A stretch of 64,000 bases of DNA from Moniliella sp. 'wahieum' (taxonomy: Eukaryota): NCBI GenBank assembly GCA_003971905.1, contig RSEE01000038.1, positions 310,001 to 374,000 on the forward strand. The letters run 5' to 3'. The number at the start of each line of letters is the position of its first letter. Position 1 is the stretch's first letter. The translations under genes were made by a program, and so were the position numbers. The notes under the pieces were generated by a model, which saw only the letters and a list, made by a program, of their open reading frames with translations, searched no databases and was not told where the DNA came from. Shown here one piece after another: positions 8,973-64,000 of this stretch.

Positions 8973-9759
<787 letters not shown>

Positions 9760-19100: not shown

Positions 19101-21469
19101 TTACGCCTCCGCCGTAGGTGGGAGCGGTGTGGAAGTAGGCTGGGGCGAGTCGGACGTGGGCGTAGGAGCATCAGCGTCCGACGAGGGTTTGGCCAAAATC
19201 GCCTCCACGTCCGTCGCTTGCGTCTGATCTTCCTTCAACGCACCACAATCGCATCAATCATCTTGAAGCCCAGGGACCTTGGGGGAAACAGATGAAATTG
19301 GTCACCTCGTGCGACGCACCAAACTTGGTCCGGAACGAGCCCTTGGAAGCCAAGTGGAACGTTTTGCTCAGAGCATTGTAGGCGGCAGTCACGGTGGTAA
19401 ACCGCAGGCCCACGTGCATGTTCCGACCCGGTTTCAACTCCCCGCCCGAAATGCCAAAGGAGAGCGAAGTGCACACGGGACGTTTGCTTTCGTCCCAATG
19501 GCCGACGCCTTGTCCGCCCCCTGCAGAGGAAACAAGGCAGCCGAGGACGTGTCGACGCTCGATGCGGTCGACTTGACTTGCATCGGCGTCGGCTCTGGCA
19601 CCGCGAGCACCGTCGCTTGGGGCGTGTGTGAAGGCGTTGTGTCAGAAGCTGGCGTGGCCCCTTCGGACTGCCCTCTTGCTTCCCATTCTCAGTGGCCGAA
19701 GGTTCTTCGGCTTGCTTGGCTCTGTTAAGCGTGTTGACAGGGGCCTGAACTGCAATGATTTTGCCTGGGGCCGCACTCGTACCAGCTTCGGTCACCTGCG
19801 AAGTGGAAGGACCGTTCTGTGATGGAGCCTGGGCCTGAGTTTGAGTTTGAGTTTGAGCCTGAGCTTGAGCTTGGGCTGCCTCCTGCCGAGCCTTACGGGC
19901 CCGACGAGCCTTTTCACGGTTGGACAGAGGCTTATCCTCTTCCTTTGGTTTCTTGGACGGCGTCGGCCAATCGGGCGAGCCAGCATCGCGCAACCGTTCA
20001 AGCACATGAACAATCAAGCACTCGGACGTGCCCTTGACGTCCTGGTCAAACTCCAACAGCCACTTGACCACATACTTGCCCTCCGCAATCGGTGCCAAGA
20101 CACACATCCCCACCACCTTTTCATCTTCGTGGTAGTCCAGCAACACGTTGGGCACACTCAAGTTGGACTGGCTCGTCGCCGTGCTCTTCCCCCCGTAGTG
20201 AGGTTGCCTGCACTGGCAGCGGGCTTGCCGGGTGCCCTGGCCTCCTCTTCCTCCGGAGGTGTTCGGGGCGCAACAGCGTAAAAGTACTTGCGGTGGCTCA
20301 GGTCACGCCACGGTTCCGTATCGGACGCATGGATTTGAGCCCCTTTGGCCGCCTTGGATTCTTTCCAGGTCAAGATGCCTTCTTCCACTTGTGCGCGTGT
20401 GAGGGCCGAGGAGCCATCGACAATGGGGTCAGGGAAGCGGCCATGGGCCTCAACAATCCGCAGCCCCTTGCGATGCGCCTTGCGCAACTTGGTCCGGACA
20501 AACTTCTCCGTCTGGTCCACATGGAACTGCCGCGGGTCCACCGCGTCTTCATGGATGCAGGTCAACCCGGACCAATCCAAGCTGGCACCGGCACTGAGCT
20601 TGCTAGCGCCCACCAGAGGCTCGTCCCCAATGACGTGCGGATGTGCACGGGTAAGCACATCCATAAAGTCCTCCGAGCAGCAGGACCAGAGCGGCCGCTT
20701 GCCCTCCGATTCAACCTTGTGCACCCACCGCTGTGCCACATACGCGTAGTTGTCCGGGTGGCAAAGCGGGTTGCCCCATGCAATCGCATAGGTTTGCTTG
20801 CCGTCGGGGGAATTGAGAAGATAGCCCACGTAGGCACACTTCTCAACCGGGTCTGCAACCGCATCGGCAAGTCAGTGTCAGTTCGCAATAGCAACAAGGC
20901 GTGAGATGGGGCGGGGACGTACCGTGTCGCCGTGCTGGTGGCAGGGGCAGCTCGAATATAGTGTACATCGGCTCGGTCCAGGCAGTGTTGGTGGCGGTAC
21001 CGTACAAGGGCAACAGGGAGGGCAAGAGGGGATACGGAGCAATGTTGCCCGAGCCAGGCTCGTGAAGTCGGCCATTGTTGGAGAACAAGTCGCGGAACTG
21101 GGCAGGGATTTCGGCGCCACCGGCGAGGTTGGCAGCCGAGGAGGCTTGGTTCAATGTGTTCCGGCTTCCTTCTGGATTGGTTGCGCGGGTAACGGAACTG
21201 CCCTCGGCGTCAGCCTCAGGGACAGAAGACGAGTCGGGCTCGACACTGCTGCTGAGACGGGACTGGGACGAGTGGTTGCCCAGGGGACCCGAGTGGAGGA
21301 GGGGGTGGAGCTTGTGGCGGATGGAGCCCAAGTTGCGCGAAAGGCGACTGCCGCTGAACGAGTGGCGGGGGGACCGGGGGGGAGAAGCATCAGCAGAGGC
21401 AGAGGGGCGAGAGGCGGCAAAGGACGCGCGGGGGGAGGCGAAGGAGCGGCGGGGCTGGTGCTGACTCAT
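19101..21469 (-). CDS. Free-standing DUF2156 (LPG_synthase_C) aminoacyl-tRNA transferase of the ErdS type, without an AspRS domain
   Basis: LLPLYGTATNTAWTEPMYTIF, intron 20853-20922, VGYLL...YAIAWGNPLCHP...RPLW...WSGLTCIHED...WKESKAAKGAQIHASDTEPWRDLSHRKYFYA...VKWLLEF...GTSECLI...LSFG...YNALSKTFHLASKGSFRTKFGA...ICFP..LG. These follow the motif order recalled for the ErdS C-terminal domain. The N-terminus may extend to about 21693 through a frameshift. Confidence 0.85.
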
Positions 21470-21559
21470 GCGGCGGGCGACAGGCGACGCATTGCGGGTG
21501 GGACCCGTGCTGGGTTGCTGCTTGTCGGCGGTCTGGGCTTGTGGCGGGGATTGTTGCTG

Positions 21560-21645
21560 GGGCTGGGACTGGGGCTGGGCCGAAGACTTGGACTGGGGCT
21601 GGGGCGAAGACTTGGACTGGGTCTGGGACGAAGGCTTGGACTGGG
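21560..21645. repeat. 24-bp tandem repeat (about 3 units) at the 5' end of the DUF2156 gene
   Basis: CGAAGACTTGGACTGGGGCTGGGG-like units; on the minus strand they could encode PSPSLRPS. Confidence 0.8.
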
Positions 21646-23797
21646 AGGGAGTGTGGCTGTGGGGAGCGCGCGCGTACGAATGGCATCGAGCATGGCCGGG
21701 GGGCTGGCACGCGAGAGAGGCGGTGGTGGTGGTGGCAGCAAGCGCAGCAGAGAAGCGGCGGCTGAGGCTGAGCGCTGTGTAATTAATAGCTTGTGGAGGG
21801 GGCGGGGCACTGGGCTAGTGCGGCGCAGGCACTGGCTGGGCTGCTGCGGGGGAGCTCGGATGTTCAAATCATCAATCTCACATGCTGGTGTTCGTGCATG
21901 CGGCATGCATGCAGCCATGCTTAGCGCTTCTTCATGCCTAAGGCCTAAGGCTTAGGCCTAAGGCTTAGGCCGAATGCTAATGCCTGTCCAAGCTCCCAGC
22001 CGCCACCGCATGTGTCACATGTCACATGTCACATGTCACACCCATCCCACTGCCACAGCCGGCCGCGGGCAGCCCACGCATGCCTAGCATGACTCGACGC
22101 ATGACTCGACGCATGACTCGACCGCCTGCCTGCGCCTGCCGCAGCTGGCCACGCCGTCTCTCGGGAGCCTGGCAGGACGCCTCAGATGCTCTCGATCCTC
22201 AGGTCTCACGCCCAGCAGCCCCGCGCGTAGGGCAGACTGCGGCGCACCAGCACGCACCCATGCGCCTACGCCCCTTGGCGCTGCTGTTCGCAGCCGCCGC
22301 AGTCAGGCGCCCGTGATGCGCTCATAGCCCCGCACGGGGGCAGCCGTGCGCCACCCGGTGCGCTCCGCCCGCTTCCCGCTCCCGGCTTCCGACTGCCTCG
22401 GAGACGCGCGCACGCCTCCGAAACACGCACCAGCACCAATTCTATCCGCAGGCAGCACTACGCTGCAGAATCTCAGACGCATTACGTACATTGTCATGCC
22501 CAGCTGCTGCAGGCTGCTGCCCCCGTGCGGCCCGCCAGACCCTGGCTCGGGCCAGTCGACCGGCTAACTCCGCGCAGGCCCGAGCAATTTGCAAGCTGGA
22601 TCACCGGTTAGTGCCCCGCCACGCCAGCCACCGAAAGGCCATCATGCATCATGCAGCATGCATCAGCGTCGTGCATAGCCTCTGCCCCTGTGCCGGAGCA
22701 GGCGAGAGCAGCTCGAGTGCACTGATCGGGCGGGGCGAGGCACAAGTGGAGGCCGCAGCGCCCAGCAGCGCCACCACCAGCCGGCATTGCCTCGCCGAAG
22801 ATGCGAGTAGCTGGTGACCGGCCCAATAGCCACGTCCATACGTCCAGATTCCATGCATCATGTATCACCCACCACCGGTCACCGTCACCGGTGGTCCGCG
22901 GCGTCCAGCCGACGAGTGCCAGCCAGTTTCCTTCCAGCACCCAGCCCTGGCTCGATTGGAATGTGGATCCAGCTTGCTTTTAACCTGGGCAACGGGCACT
23001 TCTTGCCGCTGCCGCCGCCAGCCTTGAAGCACACCGACCTCAGTGACTCCGTGGGGTCGACACTCCAGCGTCTAGTGGCGAATCGACTGTAAGATCTAAG
23101 ACCCGAGGAACCCAAGCAACGGTGGAAAAACTCTGGAAGAGATGCAGATCAGTGCAATCGCGCTGGCGGTTGCTTAGGTGGTTAGGTCTAAGCCTTCTGC
23201 CACACCTGGAAGAAACAGGGGTTCGAACAAGCCAGTGGAGTATACACGTTGAGACCTCGGAGAGGCCAAATAAGGGGCAATGGGTGAAGGCCCAATAAGG
23301 CGCCTACTCGGGTCCCACCATCGACAGATCAATTTAGTTGGATCGTACTCCCCATTCCCGTACATATTCTTTTTGGGCGCCGCGGATCAGCACACGAAAC
23401 TAACACTTTGCCAGAACGTCCAGCAGGATCGCAGCCGCCGCTGTGCCCATTTCCCTAAACCGGCCATGTTGGTCTAAGATACTAGCAGGACACCTTGCCG
23501 GCCTCCAAAGACGGAATCCAAGGCCCCATAATACATCACCAGCACGAAGCGATACTAACAACACTGGCAGCTTGGCCGGACCCGACCACACGATGTTCTG
23601 TCGCGTCCGGTTGACCCAAATCGGGGAACCTGTGAAACGCCTCCATGCTTCACCTTTCACCTTTCACGTTCACCCTTCACGCCTTCTTATGTACTCCCCG
23701 CCGCAAGTTCGCCAAGCGCCACTTGCCCCACTGTGCTCTCCGAGTCACATTTCCGCAGCGTAATCCATTCATACATGACCGCTGGGCCCAAGGACAG

Positions 23798-25654
23798 CTA
23801 GGCGGGAGGCGACGAGACAGACCCCGGTGTTGGCGGGCCCGGGAAGGAGGAGGAAGAGCGTGCGCGGGCCTGGTCGGCGGCCAAGACGGCCTCGGCGTAC
23901 ATCATCTTGTACTTGGCCAGTTCGTCTGCCATCTCATCCCGGGCCAGGTTGGCAACAACAATCTGTTTGGTAAGTTCGACGTGTTCGGCACTTTGGGCGG
24001 TAGCGGCCTCTTCCAATTCGCGTACGCGCGGTCAAGTTCTTGTGGACCAGCTTGAGCGCTTCGGTCTCCCTCCGATGGGCGGCGGCCGCACGCACTTTTT
24101 CATCAAACTCGGACGCATACGTATCGAGATCGAACGTGTCGAGACGCAAAGCGAAGGCTTGGCGAGCAATTCGATCTACATCCACCTCTTCCGTTCCCGC
24201 TTCCTCGGGGTTGAGCGCATCGGCCGCCCAAGGCGCCAGGACCGTGTCGCGCAACAGCGCCAACGCTTCCTCCTGCCCAAGCGCCAACAACCGCGTCTCA
24301 TTCTCCAGCAGCAGCACCAACGCGAATCGGAACAGCACCTCCAGCCCTTCCGCAAACACGGCATCCAACACGCGCCGCGCCAAGGGAGGTGGGAAGCGGT
24401 AGGTAAATGCGGTCATCAGCCATGGCGCCGCATAGTCCGCCACCTTGACTTTGTTCCGAGTCAGGTGGGCATGGAGCAGAGGCGCTTGGTCCTCCACCAG
24501 TCTTGCCAGCTGGTACAGCCTCAACTGGAGCGAGGGCAAGCCGGGCGCATAGTGACCCCTTAGGTCGTACACCCGCATCAGCCGCACCAACGCTCCAAAC
24601 GCTTCTTCGTCCGGCATGGTGCCCACCAAGGCGGCCACGACGTACTGCACTCCGGGGCAAGCGCCACACGCTGGGTCGTCGTAGAGCGAGTAGGCAGCCA
24701 CAATGTTGCCCACCGCCGTAGGCGAGGGGGGCGACGGCGCCTGCATCCACCCCCGAGCGGCGGGGGAGGCAAGCGAACGCAGCACGTCGCGCCGTACCGC
24801 CTGCGCCGCAGGATCGTTCTGTTGTTCTTTGAGATAATACGCATAGATCATCTCAAGCTCTTCGTTCTTGCTTCCCGACATGAGTTGCCACACCATACCG
24901 CGCAACGTATCTGGTACGCCGGCCTGGACCGCAGCCGAAAGTTCGTCGGGATGGTTCCGTGCCACCTCTTGGTAATCGTTCATGACCCGGCCCCAGAACG
25001 TCCAATCAATCCCATCCTCCTCCACTTCCGGCTGGGGTTCGAGCGAGCGCGACGCGCGCCGCGCGCGCTCAAACTCGTTCCGCAGCTCGTCTTGCGCCGC
25101 ACCCTCAGAGGGCACCAACGCGCTCTCTCGCCCCGCCCGCCCGGCCCGACTGGCCTGCTGTGCATTCCATTCGGTCCCAGACGGCGTCGTCGGCGTCGTC
25201 CTCTCCCTGGCCAAGAGAGATGTTGGAGAAGCGGGCCGACTCCCGCTCCTCCTCCAACGAAGCAAACGGGTTGGCCAGCATCGTCCCATCCAGCTCGGTC
25301 ATCATCAGCGTGGGCTCGGCCGACGCTTCGGGGGACTTGGGCGGCGCCCCCTCCGTCTCGGGAGCAGGAGCGTCGAGCGCCTCTTCGGCGGCGCGGCGTT
25401 GGGCTGCCATCAAGGCGCCCGTGCCGGGGGGCGCAACGACATCGTGCAGGTGGACAAGGCGGGCAGGGAGGGGGGAGCGGGCGGCGGCGGGGTCGGCGTT
25501 GGGGTCGGGGTCGAGGTCGGGGAGGGGCTGGTGCGTGCTGCGCCGGTGGGGAGCGGCAGCAGTTTGCGCCCGTGGGGATGGGCGGTTTGGGAGGGTCGGC
25601 GCGCGCGGCGCTGGGGCTCTCGAAGCGGCTGCGGAGGTCGGCGATGCGCGACAT
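23798..25654 (-). CDS. TBC-domain Rab GTPase-activating protein (Gyp5/EVI5-like)
   Basis: IDWTFWGRVMNDYQEVA...GVPDTLRGMVWQLMSGSK...AYSLYDDP...MPDEEAFGALVRLM...YAAPWLMTAF...RVLDAVFAEGLEVLFRFALVLL, followed by a C-terminal coiled coil (LSAEHVELTKQIVVANLARDEMADELAKYKMMYAE). The start is MSRIADLRSRFE. Confidence 0.92.
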
Positions 25655-45856: not shown

Positions 45857-47168
45857 ATGAGTTCATCAAATGTCAAACTCACCGTCCTTCAAACGGCTGT
45901 GGCCGATGCATTGAGCGGTGTGCTGGCCAGTGCCGCCGTCTTCCCCCTCGACACGATCAAGACTCGGATTCAGGCTGATCCGAGCAAGACGCATTACGAT
46001 CACGGAGACCTGTATGCAGCCGATGGCACCCCTCGCAAGCGCCGACTTTCGTTCGGTGACGGCCAGGTGGCTGGATGGATGCGTGGGCGGATACCTTTGT
46101 TCCATGGGCTGCTGATTCACCTTTCCCATGGCCAGATCCTGGGTTTGTACAAGGGGTTCTCAGCTACAATGGTTAGCACTTTCTTTATGCGTATGTATTT
46201 TCCCCACCCCACACTCACCTCCGTTTTCTGCGCTGACCACAACTTGTTGAATTGGAACACGGGCAACAGAGCTGTGTTACTTTTACTGGTACACGCTCTT
46301 GCGCACCCAGTATGTGCGGCGGCTCCTCCGCCGTTCTCCTTCCGGTGCCCATCTGTCGACCTTAACGGAACTGGGGATTGGCACGGTGGCGGGGCAATGG
46401 CGCAACTTATCATTCTGCATGCACGCCATGCACCTTATTGCCACCAACAGCAATTGGCCTCAACTCGCTCGGCCCCATCCACGACGGCACCTCCGGAGGA
46501 GAAACCCAGAATGAGCGTTGATAATGGAACCGATCCGCTTACAACCGACAAGACCGAGCAATCGCCCACGCCCTCTCCGACTTTACCTTCTCCTGCTCCT
46601 GACCATAGCGTTATCGGGATTGCCAAACAGATTTACCAAGACCATGGCCTGACCGGTTTTTTACTCTGGCCTCAAGCCGACGATGCTCCTATGTCTCAAC
46701 CCGGGCCTGACATATGGGCTGTTCAACCGTGCGTCTTTCCCACATAACCTTCTTTTAACACTTCCTTCTCCGTATACTAACCTCCATCTCACACCAGGAA
46801 TGAAGGAAGCCCTTCTGAAAGTAACAGGGAAAAGGGCACCACGCCTCTCCAAACATTTGGATTAGGCGCAGCTTCCAAAACCGTGGCAACGGTGGTGACC
46901 TTCCCACTGATCCTCGCAAAGCTGCGCTTGCAGGCGCGGGAAGCATCCTCATCCGGGGTCGTACGAGCATGTGGGCATCCTACGGAAGTGGTTAGCGGGC
47001 CAAGGGGTGCGAGGTGCCTACCATGGCTTGGACTCGCACATCATCAAGACCGTGTTGAGTCAGGCTTTGCTTTTTGTTGCTAAGGATACGTTCGAGGCGG
47101 TGGCCTTGATGATCATTCTCTTTGGGCGCAGGGGTTGGCGGCTTGATGCAACGTCCTGCTCGCAGTAG
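45857..47168 (+). CDS. Mitochondrial carrier family protein, most similar in pattern to the peroxisomal adenine nucleotide transporter (Ant1-like)
   Basis: Carrier signature FPLDTIKTRIQA in repeat 1, GLYKGFSATMVSTF, LCLNPGLTYGLF, ATVVTFPLILAKLRLQA, GAYHGLDSHIIKTVLSQALLFVAKD. Introns lie at about 46191-46269 and about 46729-46797. Confidence 0.85.
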
Positions 47169-58959: not shown

Positions 58960-61900
58960 TTATCGATCCTTTATATTATAGCTCAGAGGGCCCACCAAAG
59001 TGCATGGGGCACGGAGGTGCGGGTGGGTTAGAGAGTATATGATTGATGCATCTCTATGGATCCGAACATGTACGACCGAGTGCAACAAGTCACCAGCGTC
59101 AGCGTTGCTGGTGACCAGGCCTGTGCGGATCCGATGGGCCCAGAGTATCCTCACTGTTGCCCACGTCCATGGCTGAAACCCAATCATCATCCGGGTCGGG
59201 GGCAGAGGTCGAGGCCGAGCCGGTGAGTGAGGCGCGGGGTTATCATGCGGCGAGGCCTCGTCGTCGTCGTCGTCATCGTCATCGTCATTGTGGGCGGTAT
59301 CTTGGGTTTGCCACATCTGGTATGCCGAAGAAGAAAGGCCGGGTCCATCTTGGAGCGGAACGTGCACCGTGTCGCCATCATGAGCAGAATCAGCGTCCAA
59401 CGCCGTCAGGCCGTAGAGATGTTCAGCCGAAAGTTGGCCAAAGTTGGACAATCCCATCTCGTGAGAGTGGTCCTCATCGCTCTCGTGGGGTGATGGCGGG
59501 CGGTGCGGACCCCCATCAGCAGGGCCCAAGACAAGCGCCCGACGCGGCGGTTCATCCTCTTTCGCATCCGCCTCCTGACGTGAACACATCGGCGCAGTTC
59601 CCACCAAATGAGGTAAGGCAAGCGCCACCACCTGCCGTACTTGTTGACTCTTGTCCTGCGCCAACGATTGACACAGCATCGTCAGTTCTTCAGGCCTGCC
59701 TTCGGGAGCAGGGTAGTAGAACGAGTCCACTCCGCACAGCTGGGCCATCACACGAGCGAGGCTGATCCGCACATCCACCACTTTGTCTTCCCTGCCCATT
59801 CGCAAGAGACGAGGCAAGAAAATGGAGGTGACCAGGGAGGCAGGCAAATGAGCTTCCAGCAAGGCTTGCAACGCAGAGAGGAACGAAAGACGATGCCGGT
59901 ATCGCTCTGAGTCAGCCATATCGCTGACCATGCCCAAAAAGCCATCGGCCAAAACGGGATCGCTCTCGTTGAACGTATTGTAAAGCACCGGTACCGCACG
60001 AGCGCCAACTGTGCGCACCGAGGCTACCGAATCTGATAGAGCCAGTTGGGTAAGGGCAACCAAGTTGCCCTCCTCGTCGGATAGAAGGAACTTGGGGGCC
60101 AAAGCGGGCACCAGCTCCGCCAATCGTTCCCTCACCCGCCAGTCGCGAGCGAAGACACCCGTCCAAGCTTCCTTGAGGAGACGGAGTTTGGCCTCGGCGT
60201 CTGCCGAAGGGGCGTGGATCAAGAGTTGGTCCACGTGTTCGATCGCGGCCGAGCGTACCTCAGCATCGTCCCACAGTACAAACATGTCGAATAAGGGTAA
60301 TAGGTCCTTCCCGGTATTCTCCGAGCCAATGATCTTGGCCAGCTCGTGGAGTGATGCGGCCAAAGAGCGACGGGCCTTGATGTTGGCATCTTGGGCCAGC
60401 TCGGCATGCATACGGCACAAATCGGGCCAGGCAGCCTTGCCCAGTGTGAGAACGACGGCAGGGAAGTTAAAAGCGCAGACCAAAGGCCGTTCCAGGCTGA
60501 GTGCAGCCGCATTCAGGTCCCATCCCTCGTCCATGGTGAACGCATTGGCCATCGTGCCCGCATCCATGGGTTCATCATCGCCCGGACTACCAATGGGGGG
60601 CGCCGGATCAGGGGTCTCGAGATCAAAGGGTTCCCCCTTGAAGTACCGAACCAGCTCAGGCGGCGGTCCATCAGGCGTGTCATGGAAAAGGTAGATGAGC
60701 TCGCCCATAACCTCCAGGACGGTGGAACGAACTTGGCGCGAGACGTCTTGAGACAGAGAACGAAGCGATGCGACGACCTTGGTTCTTCTTACCTCCAGGT
60801 CCCTCACCTGAGCAAACAGAGTAGGTATGGCGAGACATGCGCCTTGGCGGACATGCCAAATACCGTCGTGCTGGAGGAGATCAAAGGTCTCCAGCAAGAC
60901 CTGCTCAATGTGGGACCGGCAACGTTCCGCTTCGGACCCCGAAACTTGCTCCTGCGTCGTGGAGCTAGGCTTGGGCACGACAGGTTCGCCCAGAGCCTTG
61001 GCTACTGCCGAAACGAGCAGGGCAACCTCCTTGCGGACAAAATACGCTGGGTCGGTCCTCAATCGGACAATCTCAGGAACGATGAGTGTCTCAAGCGAGT
61101 GGAGGCTGAAAATTTTGGCGCTTACCAGCGCGCTCAACAGACTCACGGACGACATGCGCCCCACCGTCGCTTCAGTGTTGGTGTCAATCACAACCTCGGA
61201 CATGTGGTCCGAATCGGCCTCATCCATCACTTGATCATGGAGGGATGAAACACCGCCAAGTGAGATGGGGGCACTCGCCTCGCCCTCTTCCAGTTGGGAA
61301 TCCACCTTGTCCGCCTCGTCCTGCTGCCCATCTTGGAGGGGAGACTCAATGTCCATTGCATCTTCCTCAGCCTCCGCATCGGCGTGAGGAGACATATCCA
61401 CATCCTCCTGGGCACCCACGTCCGATTCCAAGTTCGATCCTTGGAGTGGAGTACGTGCAGGCAAAGCCGGGGCCGCCCTCTCTTGCTGGTGCGTTGCACC
61501 TTGCTGCTCCGCCGTGACAGGCAAGTCAACGTACCTTGGCATCTCCCAAGACCCAGGCAAGGGTCCTTCGGGCCCATCGAATCCACTTGACGCATCCGCG
61601 TCTGCATGAAGACGGCCAATCGCAAATACCACGTTCTCCATCAACTCGTCCTCAATCGCTTGACGGGCAGTGCGGCCAAACTCGTACGTCTCTGCTTGGA
61701 TTGGGTCCCCTTCGCGGTCCAAAAGCGAGGTAACCAAATCGGCATCGTCTGTCACAGCGCAGGAGGCCATGTCAAGCGCATCTAGGTGGGGAGGGTGTCC
61801 TGTCCGAGGCGGGACCGCCAGGCTTGTATGCGGGCAGGAGGGGCTCCTCTTCGGCCCCTTCTTCCCCCGATGCGGAGCGCAGCGGGGAAAGTGCCGAGCC

Positions 61901-64000
61901 AGGAGGACCGACGTGCAGACGGGCCATAAACTGCTTGAGCGCATACTGCGCTGCATCAGCGACAATCGAGTGCTGGCTCAGCAGCAAGGCGCAGAGAAGA
62001 GGGGTGAACGCTGCCACATGGATGCGTGGGCGGTTCGCCGTCTCAGGGAGGCCTTCCGACGGAGGGGCAGACGAAGGGCGCTTGAGCATCGGAACAGCCC
62101 CCTCTTCGTCCTTGGAGGCCCTTCTGCGCCAACGTTGCCATGAGACAAGTCTTCTGTCTCCAGCTCGACAAGAGGGCAGTTGCGGAAAAAGTACCACATG
62201 ATCAAATGGAGATTAGGCACAAATGCCGTAGACACCTCAAGTTCTGAAAGAGGCAAGGAAGAGGTTAGCAGGCACAGCGCCAAGAAAGGGAAAACGTACC
62301 ATCGGTGCCAAGACTGTTGACCAGGGGGAAAATGCATTCGACAGCAAGGGGGAGTTCAATGTCAAACAGCCACTCGTACAGACACCGGGCCGCCAGAACG
62401 CGGTGGTAGGTCATGTCCGACTTGGCATACATGAAGATGCGCTCGAGCGGGCTTAAGTTGCCATCGTCAAACTGGCCACCATCTTCATGGATCTCCTGGT
62501 CGTCATCTCCTTCGTCAAGTGCGTCAGGCGGGGAAGGCATATCCCCGTCGCCATGGAAATCTTCCTCCTCGGGCGTGCTCTCGGCATCGGCTTGGTTCAC
62601 ATTATCGTCCCCGTTAAAGAGAAGGGCAGGGTTGAACTGTAAAAAGGCACGCGAACCACGCTTGGACCGACGTTGGTACGCTCGTTCCAGGTCTTCGTAA
62701 TCTTGCTCGGCCGTGGCCGGGTCATCGGCTAGAACATCCGTCTCGTTGGAGGGGGGTTCGTCGGCATTGGAGTACTGGTGGCGCGACATGCGAAGATGCT
62801 GGGTCAAACGGGTCGTGTCGGGGTCATCGTCGTCCTCCATCACAGCCCGCACACGCGGGCAAGAGCGTGGCGCTGCCGCCGCTCTTGATCGGGAAGCTGA
62901 TCAAACCCATCGTCTTCCCCGCCACTTTCTCCATCTGCATCCGACACCTCTTGCTCGTCATCCGTGTTGCCACCGACGCTGCCTCGGCCTGAGCCAACAG
63001 AGGCGGAGTCGTCCGACTCGGACCCCACGTCGTCCGGATCGTCACTCAATTCATACCCCGAACGCGGGGGCATCCCGATAAAGCTGCGCTTCTTGGGAGG
63101 AGACTGGGACATTTCCCCCGGACTCGTCCCTGTTGCATTCGGAAAAGTGGACGCAACGGACGAAGGGGATCCAGGGTGAGCGCTGGAATCGACAACTCCA
63201 GGAGGAAAGGCAACAGGGGAGCTATTTCCGGCAAACACCCCAAGTGCTGCATCCGTCGTCACGCGCATCCCAGCCAATCGAGGGGAGGACAGGGTTGCTG
63301 GTGCGCCACCGCTAGCAGCATAGATCCGAGCGGCACTCAGTCCAGGGCTGGCAGGAGAGCGGAGAAGGACAGGAGAGCTAGAGAGCCGGGCATCGGGGTT
63401 GGGCGTCAAAGCCGAAGGGGAGAGGGAGGGTGTGAGGCCAACCGAACCGGGGCTGAAAGCAGAATGAGGGAGACCATGTGCTTGCCCTGCCCGCTCATGA
63501 TGAGGAATGAAAATGGGAGCAGCGGGATGGGATTGCTGACGCGGGGAAGAGCCGTACGCATCGCTAGCATCGTAGCTCGACCGAGGGGGGACCCTCCAAA
63601 TTGGCAAAGGCGGTGGCTTGGGCTGGAGGAAGCCGGCCTGGTCCGTCGAGGGAGGACCCACTGGAAGCAGAGGTACTACTATTGGCGGAACTTCCTGAGC
63701 CAGACCGGGGCCGACGCGCGGAAGTGCGTCGGACCAACGCTCCAATGGCGGAAAGCTCACTTGAGTCTTGACCGACGCGAAGGGGAGAGCCAGAGATGGC
63801 AACTGGCTGCTGCCGAGGCGAGCGACGAGAGCAGCGGACGGCCATATCGGGAGAACGGCTAGCCCGACGAGCCAAGGGAACTGCAGAGGGTGATAACCTA
63901 ACGGGAGGCGTACTGGGCCGCCCTTGGCGGCCAGAGCTAGTGGTGTGGTCACTAGAGGAAGAGCGGCGACTGGAAGTGGGAGAGTGGACGGCGTTCTCCG
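58960..64000 (-). CDS. Serine/threonine-protein phosphatase 4 regulatory subunit 1-like HEAT-repeat protein; 5' end lies beyond the window
   Basis: LSPLERIFMYAKSDMTYHRV...IFPLVNSLGTD, intron 62244-62299, AFVPNLHLIMWYFF, FTPLLCALLL, DPAYFVRKEVA, DGIWHVRQGAC, VCAFNFPAVVLTLGKAAW, KARRSLAASLHELAKIIG, DWRVRERLA, DSVASVR, DKVVDVRISLAR. Confidence 0.88.

Follow-up and report, generated by a model that had tools for sequence, protein, structure and literature searches.

To our knowledge, the transfer of an aminoacyl group from tRNA to a sterol has been described for just two fungal enzymes, namely ErdS, which uses aspartate and is fused to an AspRS, and ErgS, which uses glycine; we know of no such enzyme in the yeast S. 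cerevisiae. For ErdS, functions have been assigned to H795, R914, the CCA pocket, and Q836, and the S644A and Q836R variants lowered or abolished activity in yeast (PMC13219428). According to PMC7334510, the DUF2156 domain of ErdS, when standing alone, is able to scavenge Asp-tRNA in yeast, but it is poorly active. ErgS functions with GlyRS in trans, shares approximately 20% identity with the ErdS transferase domain (PSI-BLAST E-value of 6e-10), and is known from Ascomycota and from one basidiomycete, Trichosporon oleaginosus (PMC8913301); the 2026 structure paper still gave its occurrence as confined to Ascomycota (PMC13219428). According to PMC8913301, substrates are not readable from DUF2156 sequences.

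The gene analysed in the present work, judging from its sequence, probably encodes (with a probability of about 0.7) a functional, free-standing DUF2156/double-GNAT alpha(+) aminoacyl-tRNA transferase, belonging to a paralogous clade of Ustilaginomycotina that is placed outside the ErdS transferase domain, although related to it; the 3-beta-OH of ergosterol would be its likeliest acceptor, and the breaks in its reading frame would represent assembly errors.

Structure of the Gene

The gene occupies positions 19101..21469 of the window (the whole stretch of DNA analysed, 64 kb in length) and lies on the minus strand, as do all of its features described below. It runs from an ATG at 21469 to a TAA at 19103-19101, contains one intron, and encodes 768 aa, with an X at each of five frame breaks; the coordinates and the strand given in the earlier note were correct. 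Exon 1 (20923..21469) codes for an S/P/R-rich low-complexity N-terminus followed by the start of GNAT I, including the LYGTATNTAW loop, and aligns (tblastn) with residues 211-249 of the Tilletiaria protein P0003. The intron (20853..20922; 70 nt, phase 1) reads GTACGT...CAG, with GT..AG borders and two CTGAC branch-site matches; the joining of the exons across it yields ...ARRH-D-PVEKCAYVGY, which is colinear with P0003. Exon 2 (19101..20852) codes for the rest of GNAT I, the alpha(+) helix, GNAT II with an insertion of about 170 aa, and the C-terminal tail up to the stop codon, and it embeds the five one-base frame breaks.

The N-terminus of the product is uncertain. The main frame remains open up to 21814, and the GC3 value (0.76-0.80) suggests that a candidate N-terminal extension (21470..21692) may be coding. 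The sole ATG upstream of 21469 is found at 21692, in a neighbouring frame, and its use would require a sixth one-base gap.

Sequence Similarity and Predicted Fold

A phmmer search against 1.84 billion representatives retrieved 92 matches at E ≤ 1e-3, and the similarity greatly exceeds what chance would produce. When exon 2 was used to probe the PDB sequences, the only chains retrieved were those of A. fumigatus ErdS (9w9e, 9w9f, and 9w9g; E-value of 1.8e-17), which were also matched by the C-terminal piece (2.2e-06) and by the orthologue P0003 (1.2e-20); the pieces 19940-20188 and 20924-21100, searched singly, did not retrieve ErdS from the PDB. The reading of this gene as a free-standing DUF2156 protein thus stands, with the ErdS transferase domain as its closest characterised and solved relative. 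The proteins of the window clade are 27-39% identical to ErdS domains, with a BLASTP E-value of about 1e-32 for the window protein itself. As regards Pfam, the cut-off of PF09924 is 27.5 bits; the exon-2 piece scored 19.7, and the remaining three pieces had no Pfam match. Among the homologues, P0003 passes the cut-off (39.7 bits), while P0001 (25.1) and P0002 (25.6) fall just under it.

The structure was modelled for the orthologue P0002, which is 77% identical to the window protein over exon 2. The AlphaFold model (pTM 0.61; pLDDT of at least 70 in 330 out of 621 residues) fits a pair of GNAT folds connected through a positively charged helix, and this helix, EKFVRTKLRKAHRKGLR, is present in the window protein itself (20458..20508), where it corresponds to R749-R753 of ErdS and to helix 137-148 of the model. 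Foldseek placed bacterial DUF2156 domains (5vrv, 7f47, and 4v36) at the top of its results, with E-values of about 3e-9, a probability of 1.00, and a target-normalised TM-score of about 0.51.

Active-Site and Pocket Residues

All the motifs that had been listed in the earlier note were found, that is, LYGTATNTAW, GNPLC, QIHASDTEPWRDLSHRKY, KWLLEF, GTSECLI, SFGIS, KGSFRTKFG, and ICFPQGP(x)LG. Residues were compared in a table built on 65 aligned DUF2156 domains, 35 of which are AspRS-fused ErdS rows. The GNAT I loop LYGTATNTAW (20978..21007) corresponds to Y637-W645 of Afm ErdS, part of the predicted sterol pocket (PMC13219428); Y637, T641, T643, and W645 are retained, and S644 is replaced by A. 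The WGNPLC motif (20761..20778) contains the N677 equivalent. The CCA-pocket and catalytic segment, W..K..KGAQIH...PWRD..HRKYFY (20278..20367), which was located by alignment to ErdS and from PMC13219428, retains the equivalents of W785, K790, G791, Q793, H795, and W802, with R789 changed to K and E798 to D. In the GNAT II strand YVVKWLLEF (20048..20074), K838 is retained and Q836 is replaced by V, and KGSFRTKFGA (19315..19344) supplies the equivalents of F913, R914 (the proposed oxyanion stabiliser), and K916 (PMC13219428).

According to these data, the transferase active site aligns at every position (W, K, K, G, Q, H, F, R, K), R789K being the sole change. As for the sterol pocket, Y637, T641, T643, W645, N677, C728, E731, W802, and K838 are retained together with H795, and four near-invariant positions are altered: S644A, D647E, R649M, and Q836V. 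In the fused ErdS rows, these positions are conserved in 32 (S644), 33 (D647), 28 (R649), and 35 (Q836) of the 35 sequences. These changes imply that the enzyme may use another amino acid than ErdS does, and possibly another acceptor, so that the proposal of a different amino acid or acceptor made in the earlier note is plausible. The A at 644 and the V at 836 could also mean a lower activity instead of a new specificity.

Moreover, the GNAT II loop harbors the insertion of about 170 aa (19483..19978), which is common to P0001 and P0002, is found neither in Tilletiaria nor in ErdS, and is mostly predicted to be disordered. At its start lies a basic stretch, DKPLSNREKARRARKARQEAAQAQ (19865..19936), whose equivalent in P0002 is a predicted helix of about 30 residues (335-365), with ten-residue block means in the model of 87, 95, 94, and 71 over residues 331-370.

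Phylogenetic Position and Free-Standing Relatives

A tree was constructed with the 35 AspRS-fused rows and the free-standing proteins; it was midpoint-rooted, with no bacterial outgroup, and a free-standing DUF2156 protein of 330 aa on a very long branch (P0133) acted as the de facto outlier. The window protein clusters with P0002, P0001, and Tilletiaria anomala (100/100), and this group is joined by the Microstromatales (100/99). A single clade (96/93) unites all 35 AspRS-fused rows and leaves out the window protein, and the AU test rejected the joining of the window clade to basidiomycete ErdS (p 0.003); the placement of the window (Ustilaginomycotina) clade as sister to all ErdS was not rejected (p 0.30). 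These data therefore indicate that the gene is an old paralogue, rather than the outcome of a recent split from ErdS. The earlier note had described it as split or duplicated from ErdS: the split does not agree with the fused clade and the AU test, and the gene is instead an old paralogue having free-standing relatives. The monophyly of all the free-standing basidiomycete proteins received 89/91 and is not claimed here, since an AU p of 0.30 permits the Ustilaginomycotina clade to group with ErdS.

Free-standing relatives are found in Tilletiaria (665 aa), Jaminaea (394 aa), Microstroma (389 aa), and Parajaminaea (393 aa), where their annotation goes no further than "hypothetical protein" or [quoted passage not shown]. 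Related free-standing proteins possibly occur also in Agaricomycetes and Microbotryomycetes, and in that clade the His795 equivalent is lost in eight out of nine rows. Furthermore, an ESM Atlas cluster of 213 members, mostly basidiomycete, suggests that the free-standing ErdS-like clade is common in basidiomycetes. In the ErdS/ErgS papers searched (PMC7334510, PMC8913301, and PMC13219428), no description of these relatives as a class was found. No ErdS from Ustilaginomycotina was named among the matches listed (120 of 232) in the ErdS-domain search, in which the word index favours relatives of the Laetiporus query; Ustilago maydis is stated to have ErdS in PMC7334510.

Possible Function and Acceptor

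The following scenario can be depicted for the reaction. An ordinary cytosolic aminoacyl-tRNA synthetase would charge the tRNA in trans; the acceptor end of the tRNA would then be bound by the basic alpha(+) helix and by the CCA pocket (the equivalents of W785, K790, G791, Q793, F913, and K916). Lastly, the His795 equivalent would deprotonate a lipid hydroxyl and the Arg914 equivalent would stabilise the oxyanion, so that the aminoacyl group would end up esterified to the lipid. Ergosterol, through its 3-beta-OH, is the most likely acceptor, since the protein retains the greater part of the ErdS sterol-pocket signature.

A different possibility, which we consider unlikely without dismissing it, is that the protein draws on aminoacyl-tRNA to modify something other than a sterol, for example a glycerolipid, a peptide, or a small molecule, or that it is a catalytically weakened protein with some other role. 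The four altered pocket positions, including Q836, which is invariant in the fused rows, agree with this possibility, as does the composition of the fold family, to which FemX and the aminoacyl-tRNA-dependent peptide synthases Sbb17 and Sba18 belong; the loss of the His795 equivalent in the Agaricomycetes/Microbotryomycetes rows, in turn, would imply that the function has drifted within the superclade. However, the window protein keeps the nine other pocket residues listed above as well as the general-base His, and its sequence is nearer to ErdS than to any bacterial aminoacyl-phosphatidylglycerol synthase (aaPGS), none of which was retrieved by the PDB sequence search of exon 2 at E ≤ 1.

We tentatively suggest, as a possible but rather doubtful extension, that free-standing paralogues of the ErdS domain might constitute a third, undescribed basidiomycete class of tRNA-dependent lipid aminoacyl-transferases. 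In the Ustilaginomycotina branch considered here, such a class would have kept the ErdS catalytic machinery, with a pocket for the acceptor and the aminoacyl group that has been remodelled and made less polar (S644A, R649M, and Q836V), and its product might be a steryl-amino acid other than Erg-Asp and Erg-Gly or another aminoacylated hydroxyl lipid; in the subgroup of the window protein, the GNAT II basic helix might serve as a built-in tRNA clamp, replacing the help provided by the fused AspRS and the N-terminal helix of ErdS. The Ustilaginomycotina branch, having retained the catalytic residues and altered pocket residues that are invariant in ErdS, is a candidate for a new aminoacyl-lipid, and its altered pocket represents a natural experiment on the residues that set amino-acid or acceptor specificity.

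It is improbable that the gene is the basidiomycete orthologue of ErgS, producing ergosteryl-glycine from Gly-tRNA. The architecture is alike (a free-standing DUF2156 domain with a variable N-terminal extension), and one basidiomycete, T. oleaginosus, does possess ErgS according to PMC8913301. Nevertheless, the published identity of ErgS with the ErdS domain (about 20%; PMC8913301) is lower than that of the window clade (27-39%), the authors of PMC8913301 reported that their searches did not find ErgS in other Basidiomycota, and among the matches for which a name was obtained there was no ascomycete free-standing protein. No ErgS sequence was present among the matches of the word-index search (3), of phmmer (92), of the profile search (34), or of the ErdS-domain search (120 listed of 232).

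Frame Breaks in Exon 2

The indels suspected in the earlier note are real in the assembly, in that exon 2 contains five frame changes relative to P0001 and P0002. The first one falls in a G6 run (20189..20194), where one added base gives ...TTG(G)KSTATSQSNLSVPNVLL as in P0002; an intron was considered as its cause and rejected, since it would delete the conserved YFYAVAP, which is read through in P0001-P0003. The second falls in a G4 run of the low-complexity insertion (19658..19661, the exact site within 19640-19690 not being fixed), and the third in a G5 run (19517..19521), somewhere between FPLQG and WDESKRP. The fourth coincides with the CCC that follows ICFPQGP (19273..19275), where one added base gives ...QGP(L)GFKMIDAIV, and the fifth (19242..19245) lies between GFKMIDAIV and ALKEDQ, a region reading AIVGALKEDQ in P0002. 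All five correspond to one missing base, and four of them fall in G/C runs of at least three.

Frame changes that leave no room for an intron also occur elsewhere in the window, in Arf, AA_permease (two sites), Mito_carr, and Rad54_N; four of these five sites correspond to one missing base, and in Arf, TGG is read as TG within the conserved WRHYY motif. Because similar breaks strike the Arf, Rad54, amino-acid permease, and mitochondrial carrier genes of the same window, those of the DUF2156 gene are most likely assembly errors and not signs of decay.

Among real frameshift mutations, homopolymer deletions are the commonest; a total of five breaks in 2.4 kb represents a high density, and the error density is uneven, since ORFs of 1005 aa (58963-61977) and 454 aa (23937-25298) in the window are intact. 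A recent pseudogene, in which the five one-base deletions would be true mutations of a gene no longer functional in this organism, would account for these observations. Yet the segments past each break, read in the shifted frame, contain zero in-frame stops and keep 53-84% identity to P0002, and the pattern of breaks, which extends to essential genes of the same window, suits an assembly-wide error better than five independent hits in a single gene. Thus, the pseudogene, which the earlier note had kept as an alternative, is very improbable. The assembly in this region has many one-base gaps, and its gene calls need read-level correction.

Lack of a Fused Synthetase and of a Neighbouring Hydrolase

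Five full-length ErdS sequences were used as tblastn queries, and they matched the window by their DUF2156 parts alone (from 19276 to 21001); their AspRS parts gave no match at E ≤ 1e-3 in the 64 kb, including the 42 kb upstream of the gene. Neither synthetase nor hydrolase Pfam families were detected in 136 of the 160 ORFs of at least 130 aa over the whole window or, from 11.5 to 30.5 kb, in 95 shorter ORFs (70-129 aa), and the N-terminal region of the protein matched no Pfam family. The next gene upstream on the minus strand is a RabGAP-TBC gene. Both searches agree with the earlier description of the N-terminus as S/P/R-rich low complexity lacking a synthetase domain, and of the surroundings as devoid of synthetases and hydrolases. 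In the absence of a synthetase domain or of a nearby synthetase, aminoacyl-tRNA would therefore have to be taken in trans, as had been proposed.

That the gene is a canonical ErdS, with its AspRS exons situated upstream or missing through misassembly, has a near-negligible probability: the N-terminus is uncertain, with a frame that continues open and coding-like to about 21800 and lacks an in-frame ATG, and truncated ErdS accounts for many of the "standalone" DUF2156 entries in databases (PMC7334510), but the AspRS parts of the queries are unmatched, tRNA-synt_2 was not found in the 136 and 95 ORFs, the upstream same-strand neighbour is RabGAP-TBC, the Tilletiaria orthologue and the sister proteins of three Microstromatales genomes are free-standing, and the window protein falls outside the AspRS-fused clade.

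Comparison with Known Systems

A. fumigatus ErdS (9w9e, 9w9f, and 9w9g) and the window protein both have the double-GNAT fold with its basic alpha(+) helix, and they share the CCA pocket (W785, K790, G791, Q793, F913, and K916), the proposed base H795, R914, and the greater part of the sterol-pocket signature. They differ in that ErdS carries an N-terminal AspRS fused to DUF2156, which the window protein lacks, and in that the ErdS gene adjoins the divergently oriented erdH hydrolase gene, whereas the window gene has no neighbouring hydrolase Pfam domain. S644A, D647E, R649M, Q836V, R789K, and E798D are the residue changes between the two; in addition, the window protein has an N-terminal low-complexity region and the GNAT II insertion of about 170 aa with its basic helix.

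Several free-standing basidiomycete DUF2156 proteins, all of them uncharacterised, group with the window protein. The orthologue of Tilletiaria anomala (K437DRAFT_264063; 52% identity over exon 2, clade 100/100) lacks the GNAT II insertion, and the proteins of the Microstromatales (Jaminaea rosea BDZ90DRAFT_258977, Microstroma glucosiphilum BCV69DRAFT_270560, and Parajaminaea phylloscopi) form the sister group (34% identity, 100/99). These proteins share His795, Q836V, and D647E with the window protein; those of the Microstromatales are compact (389-394 aa), being devoid of both the long N-terminal region and the insertion.

As to the bacterial aaPGS (MprF C-terminal domain, PF09924), they belong to the same fold and Pfam family as the window protein, and the P0002 model matches 5vrv, 7f47, 4v36, 6lv0, 7duw, and 4v34 with Foldseek E-values from 3e-9 to 2e-7 at 11-15% identity. 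They acylate glycerolipids, and the window protein lacks a membrane flippase domain. ErgS resembles the window protein in being a free-standing DUF2156 protein with no synthetase or flippase domain, with a variable, unannotated N-terminal extension and with aminoacyl-tRNA made in trans (PMC8913301); going by identity to the ErdS domain, about 20% as published for ErgS versus 27-39% for the window clade, the two would be set apart.

Structure of the Gene and of Its Product

The DUF2156 gene lies on the minus strand, and the span that the earlier note assigned to it is reproduced exactly: coding sequence starting at the first ATG of the frame, at 21469, ends with the TAA at 19103-19101. Exon 1 (21469-20923) is followed by a phase 1 intron of 70 nt (20922-20853; GTACGT...CAG, with two CTGAC branch-site matches), after which coding resumes in exon 2 up to the TAA. 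All the motifs of the ErdS C-terminal series listed in that note were found in the translations. Reading through the gene with an X at each of five frame breaks, we computed a protein of 768 aa, composed of an N-terminal region rich in S, P and R (about 140 aa), a DUF2156 domain (approximately residues 138-731) split by a GNAT II loop insertion of about 170 aa, and a low-complexity tail. The nearest homologues are two ORFs from short contigs, P0001 (595 aa) and P0002 (621 aa), which are 74% and 77% identical to the window protein over exon 2, and P0003, the annotated 665-aa K437DRAFT_264063 of Tilletiaria anomala, with 52% identity. The latter departs from the family alignment after HLGSKSSF (about residue 581), and no FR.KFG motif follows; the gene model as published probably overlooks an intron or a frame at the 3' end.

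The true start of the gene could be located upstream of 21469. The main frame stays open to 21814, and between about 21775 and 21475 its GC3 is 0.76-0.80. This stretch is likewise of low complexity, and its single ATG (21692) lies in the adjacent frame, so that one missing base separates it from the main one. The possible N-terminal extension contains a 24-nt tandem repeat (21566-21645; 3.3 copies) encoding QSK(S/P)S.Q. units, and three short perfect arrays with units of 13, 7 and 12 nt lie in the upstream intergenic region (21936-21971, 22013-22040 and 22087-22122, respectively).

Origin of the Frame Breaks

Compared with P0001, P0002 and P0003, the gene shows five reading-frame changes, located at runs of six G, four G, five G and three C and at a GG. 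All of them shift the codon phase the same way, each corresponding to one missing base. We read them as probable assembly errors, since the segments beyond each break are 53-84% identical to P0002 with no stops, and since similar breaks affect other genes of the window. The latter were recognised where a Pfam profile runs across frames leaving no room for an intron; this occurs at five sites in four genes, i.e., an Arf-family GTPase (about 9447-9450), an amino-acid permease (40749/40752 and 40537/40543), a mitochondrial carrier (about 46957-46968) and a Rad54_N gene (about 695-700). Four of the five sites correspond to one missing base, the exception being that of the mitochondrial carrier. 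The Arf DNA, for instance, reads ...CCATTGTGCGGCAC..., in which the Trp codon of RPLWRHYY, a conserved stretch of Arf proteins, is one G short (TG for TGG). The opposite reading, in which the breaks are real mutations of a recent pseudogene, might invoke the ORFs of 1005 and 454 aa that run without a break in the same window, which speak against a general assembly error; these imply an uneven density of errors across the window, and, given the stop-free segments and the breaks in other genes, we consider recent decay very improbable. With assembly error as the preferred reading, many one-base gaps appear to be present in this assembly, which would make ORF-based gene calls unreliable in the window. 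Between 14072 and 18240 on the minus strand, overlapping ORFs with no Pfam family are chained through changing frames, probably representing a single long low-complexity or coiled-coil gene split by gaps of the same kind.

Free-Standing Architecture

The enzyme had been proposed to be a stand-alone DUF2156 protein with a low-complexity N-terminus and with neither a synthetase nor a hydrolase nearby, and each of these points held. Five full-length ErdS queries (P0010, P0041, P0074, P0063 and P0076) match the window only from about their residue 634 onwards (at 19276-21001), their AspRS parts giving no match anywhere in it at E ≤ 1e-3. The N-terminal 140 aa or so belong to no Pfam family. Of the 160 stop-to-stop ORFs of at least 130 aa, 136 were scanned with Pfam (12 of the other 24 lie within the gene region and 12 are the shortest), which retrieved Rad54_N, FMN_red, Arf, MSP, B12D, RabGAP-TBC, CAP-Gly, zinc finger, AA_permease, Mito_carr and HEAT families and no synthetase or hydrolase; another 95 ORFs, each of 70-129 aa and located between 11.5 and 30.5 kb, yielded no Pfam result. 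The nearest upstream gene on the same strand encodes a RabGAP-TBC protein (23937-25298). The annotated relatives are likewise free-standing (Tilletiaria, 665 aa; Jaminaea rosea, 394 aa; Microstroma glucosiphilum, 389 aa; Parajaminaea phylloscopi, 393 aa).

Family Assignment and Phylogenetic Placement

The window piece scores 19.7 bits with PF09924, below the cut-off of 27.5, which P0003 passes. A phmmer search of 1.84 billion representatives retrieved 92 matches at E ≤ 1e-3 (21 at ≤ 1e-10 and two at ≤ 1e-30). Pfam analysis of 39 of them revealed tRNA-synt_2 in 17, which are thus ErdS-type fusions or their fragments, PF09924 only in 19 and nothing in three. Among solved structures, the sequence search matched only A. 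fumigatus ErdS (9w9e/f/g), with E-values of 1.8e-17 for exon 2, 2.2e-06 for the C-terminal piece and 1.2e-20 for P0003; two short window pieces searched separately had no match. The AlphaFold model of P0002 (mean pLDDT 68, pTM 0.61; core blocks 84-95) shows disorder in the insertion, in the tail and in three loops. It best matched the bacterial DUF2156 domains 5vrv, 7f47, 4v36, 6lv0, 7duw and 4v34 (E from 3e-9 to 2e-7), and ErdS entries were absent from these fold-search results.

In blastp, orthologues aside, the read-through protein is matched best by the free-standing protein from Jaminaea (34% identity, 1e-45); the ErdS proteins from Naganishia (6e-33) and from Laetiporus (1e-32) come lower. 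A tree of 62 domains, rooted only at the midpoint (IQ-TREE, 328 columns; matches spanning fewer than 270 of the 328 profile positions omitted), groups the window protein with P0002, P0001 and Tilletiaria (support 100/100). The Microstromatales proteins join this group (100/99), and the resulting Ustilaginomycotina clade is joined, at 89/91, by free-standing proteins from Microbotryomycetes, Tulasnella, Agaricales and Hericium. The 35 AspRS-fused domains all group in one clade (96/93). The AU test rejected the union of the Ustilaginomycotina clade with basidiomycete ErdS (p 0.003); its union with all ErdS, excluding the other free-standing proteins, was not rejected (p 0.30), so that one free-standing superclade is not established. 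Of the earlier interpretation, the free-standing ErdS-related transferase stands, and the split ErdS does not. As far as sequence comparison goes, the gene can safely be described as an old paralogue of the ErdS transferase domain, and not as the product of a recent split of a basidiomycete ErdS.

Looking up P0003 in the ESM Atlas gave a mostly basidiomycete cluster with 213 free-standing PF09924 proteins and a second, separate one of 191, mostly ascomycete; both are regarded as leads only. Among the matches listed, the named Agaricomycetes ErdS fusions belong for the most part to Polyporales, Gloeophyllales, Phallomycetidae, Cantharellales and Atheliales; the named free-standing proteins are from Agaricales, Russulales, Hymenochaetales and Tulasnella. 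The two forms may be complementary in distribution. P0133, a K/N/E-rich free-standing DUF2156 protein of 330 aa on a 14-kb contig (25-29% identity to ErdS domains), retains His795, carries W where ErdS has Arg914 and is placed on a very long branch. The fungal cluster of P0106 includes a 57-aa member deposited under an Oscillibacter metagenome-assembled genome, probably fungal contamination of that bin.

Active Site and Proposed Mechanism

Residues from the ErdS structure paper (PMC13219428) were mapped onto an alignment of 65 domains (A. fumigatus numbering). The window protein keeps the basic alpha(+) helix, the CCA pocket (W785, K790, G791, Q793, F913 and K916), H795 as the proposed general base and R914 as the oxyanion-stabilising residue; on these grounds, the machinery for tRNA-end binding and transesterification is predicted to be intact. 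Y637, T641, T643, W645, N677, C728, E731, W802 and K838 of the pocket are also kept. Six positions differ: S644 is A (S in 32 of the 35 fused domains), D647 is E (D in 33/35), R649 is M (R in 28/35), Q836 is V and R789 is K (Q and R, respectively, in 35/35), and E798 is D (E in 17/35). Where GNAT I and GNAT II meet, the pocket thus appears remodelled and less polar. Q836R is reported to abolish ErdS activity, and S644A to have the strongest effect of the remaining pocket mutants (PMC13219428).

Nine free-standing proteins of Microbotryomycetes, Tulasnella, Agaricales and Hericium (P0011, P0026, P0049, P0036, P0012, P0030, P0048, P0080 and P0081) have His795 replaced, by Ala in eight and Asp in one, with the CCA pocket and Arg914 kept; they may use another base or another acceptor, or be inactive. 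The GNAT II insertion of the window protein starts with DKPLSNREKARRARKARQEAAQAQ, whose P0002 equivalent is predicted to form a helix some 30 residues long (mean pLDDT by block 87, 95, 94 and 71 over residues 331-370); speculatively, this modelled helix could aid tRNA or membrane binding.

In the mechanism that we propose, a canonical synthetase would charge the tRNA in trans, as shown for ErgS with GlyRS (PMC8913301) and for the ErdS domain in isolation, where efficiency is low (PMC7334510). The acceptor end would be held by the alpha(+) helix together with the CCA pocket, His would deprotonate the lipid hydroxyl while Arg stabilises the oxyanion, and the lipid would end up with an esterified aminoacyl group. 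Ergosterol is the most likely acceptor. Asp as the amino acid is less than certain, given the changed pocket, and the sequence does not reveal which amino acid is used.

Comparison with Known Systems

In the full-text literature searched, fungal enzymes of this kind are covered only by the ErdS (2020), ErgS (2022) and ErdS-structure (2026) papers, and no description of a basidiomycete free-standing clade was found there, though figures and some supplements lay beyond its reach and may bear on this point. According to these papers, standalone DUF2156 entries made up 23% of the hits of the first and were often truncated ErdS (PMC7334510); ErgS was apparently missing from Basidiomycota, Trichosporon oleaginosus excepted, and more cryptic transferases were anticipated (PMC8913301); and the most recent still counts two enzymes, with ErgS confined to Ascomycota (PMC13219428). 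By its sequence, the gene described here would be a variant within this known kind of DUF2156 aminoacyl-tRNA transferases, related to ErdS and sharing both Q836V and D647E with its Microstromatales sister proteins.
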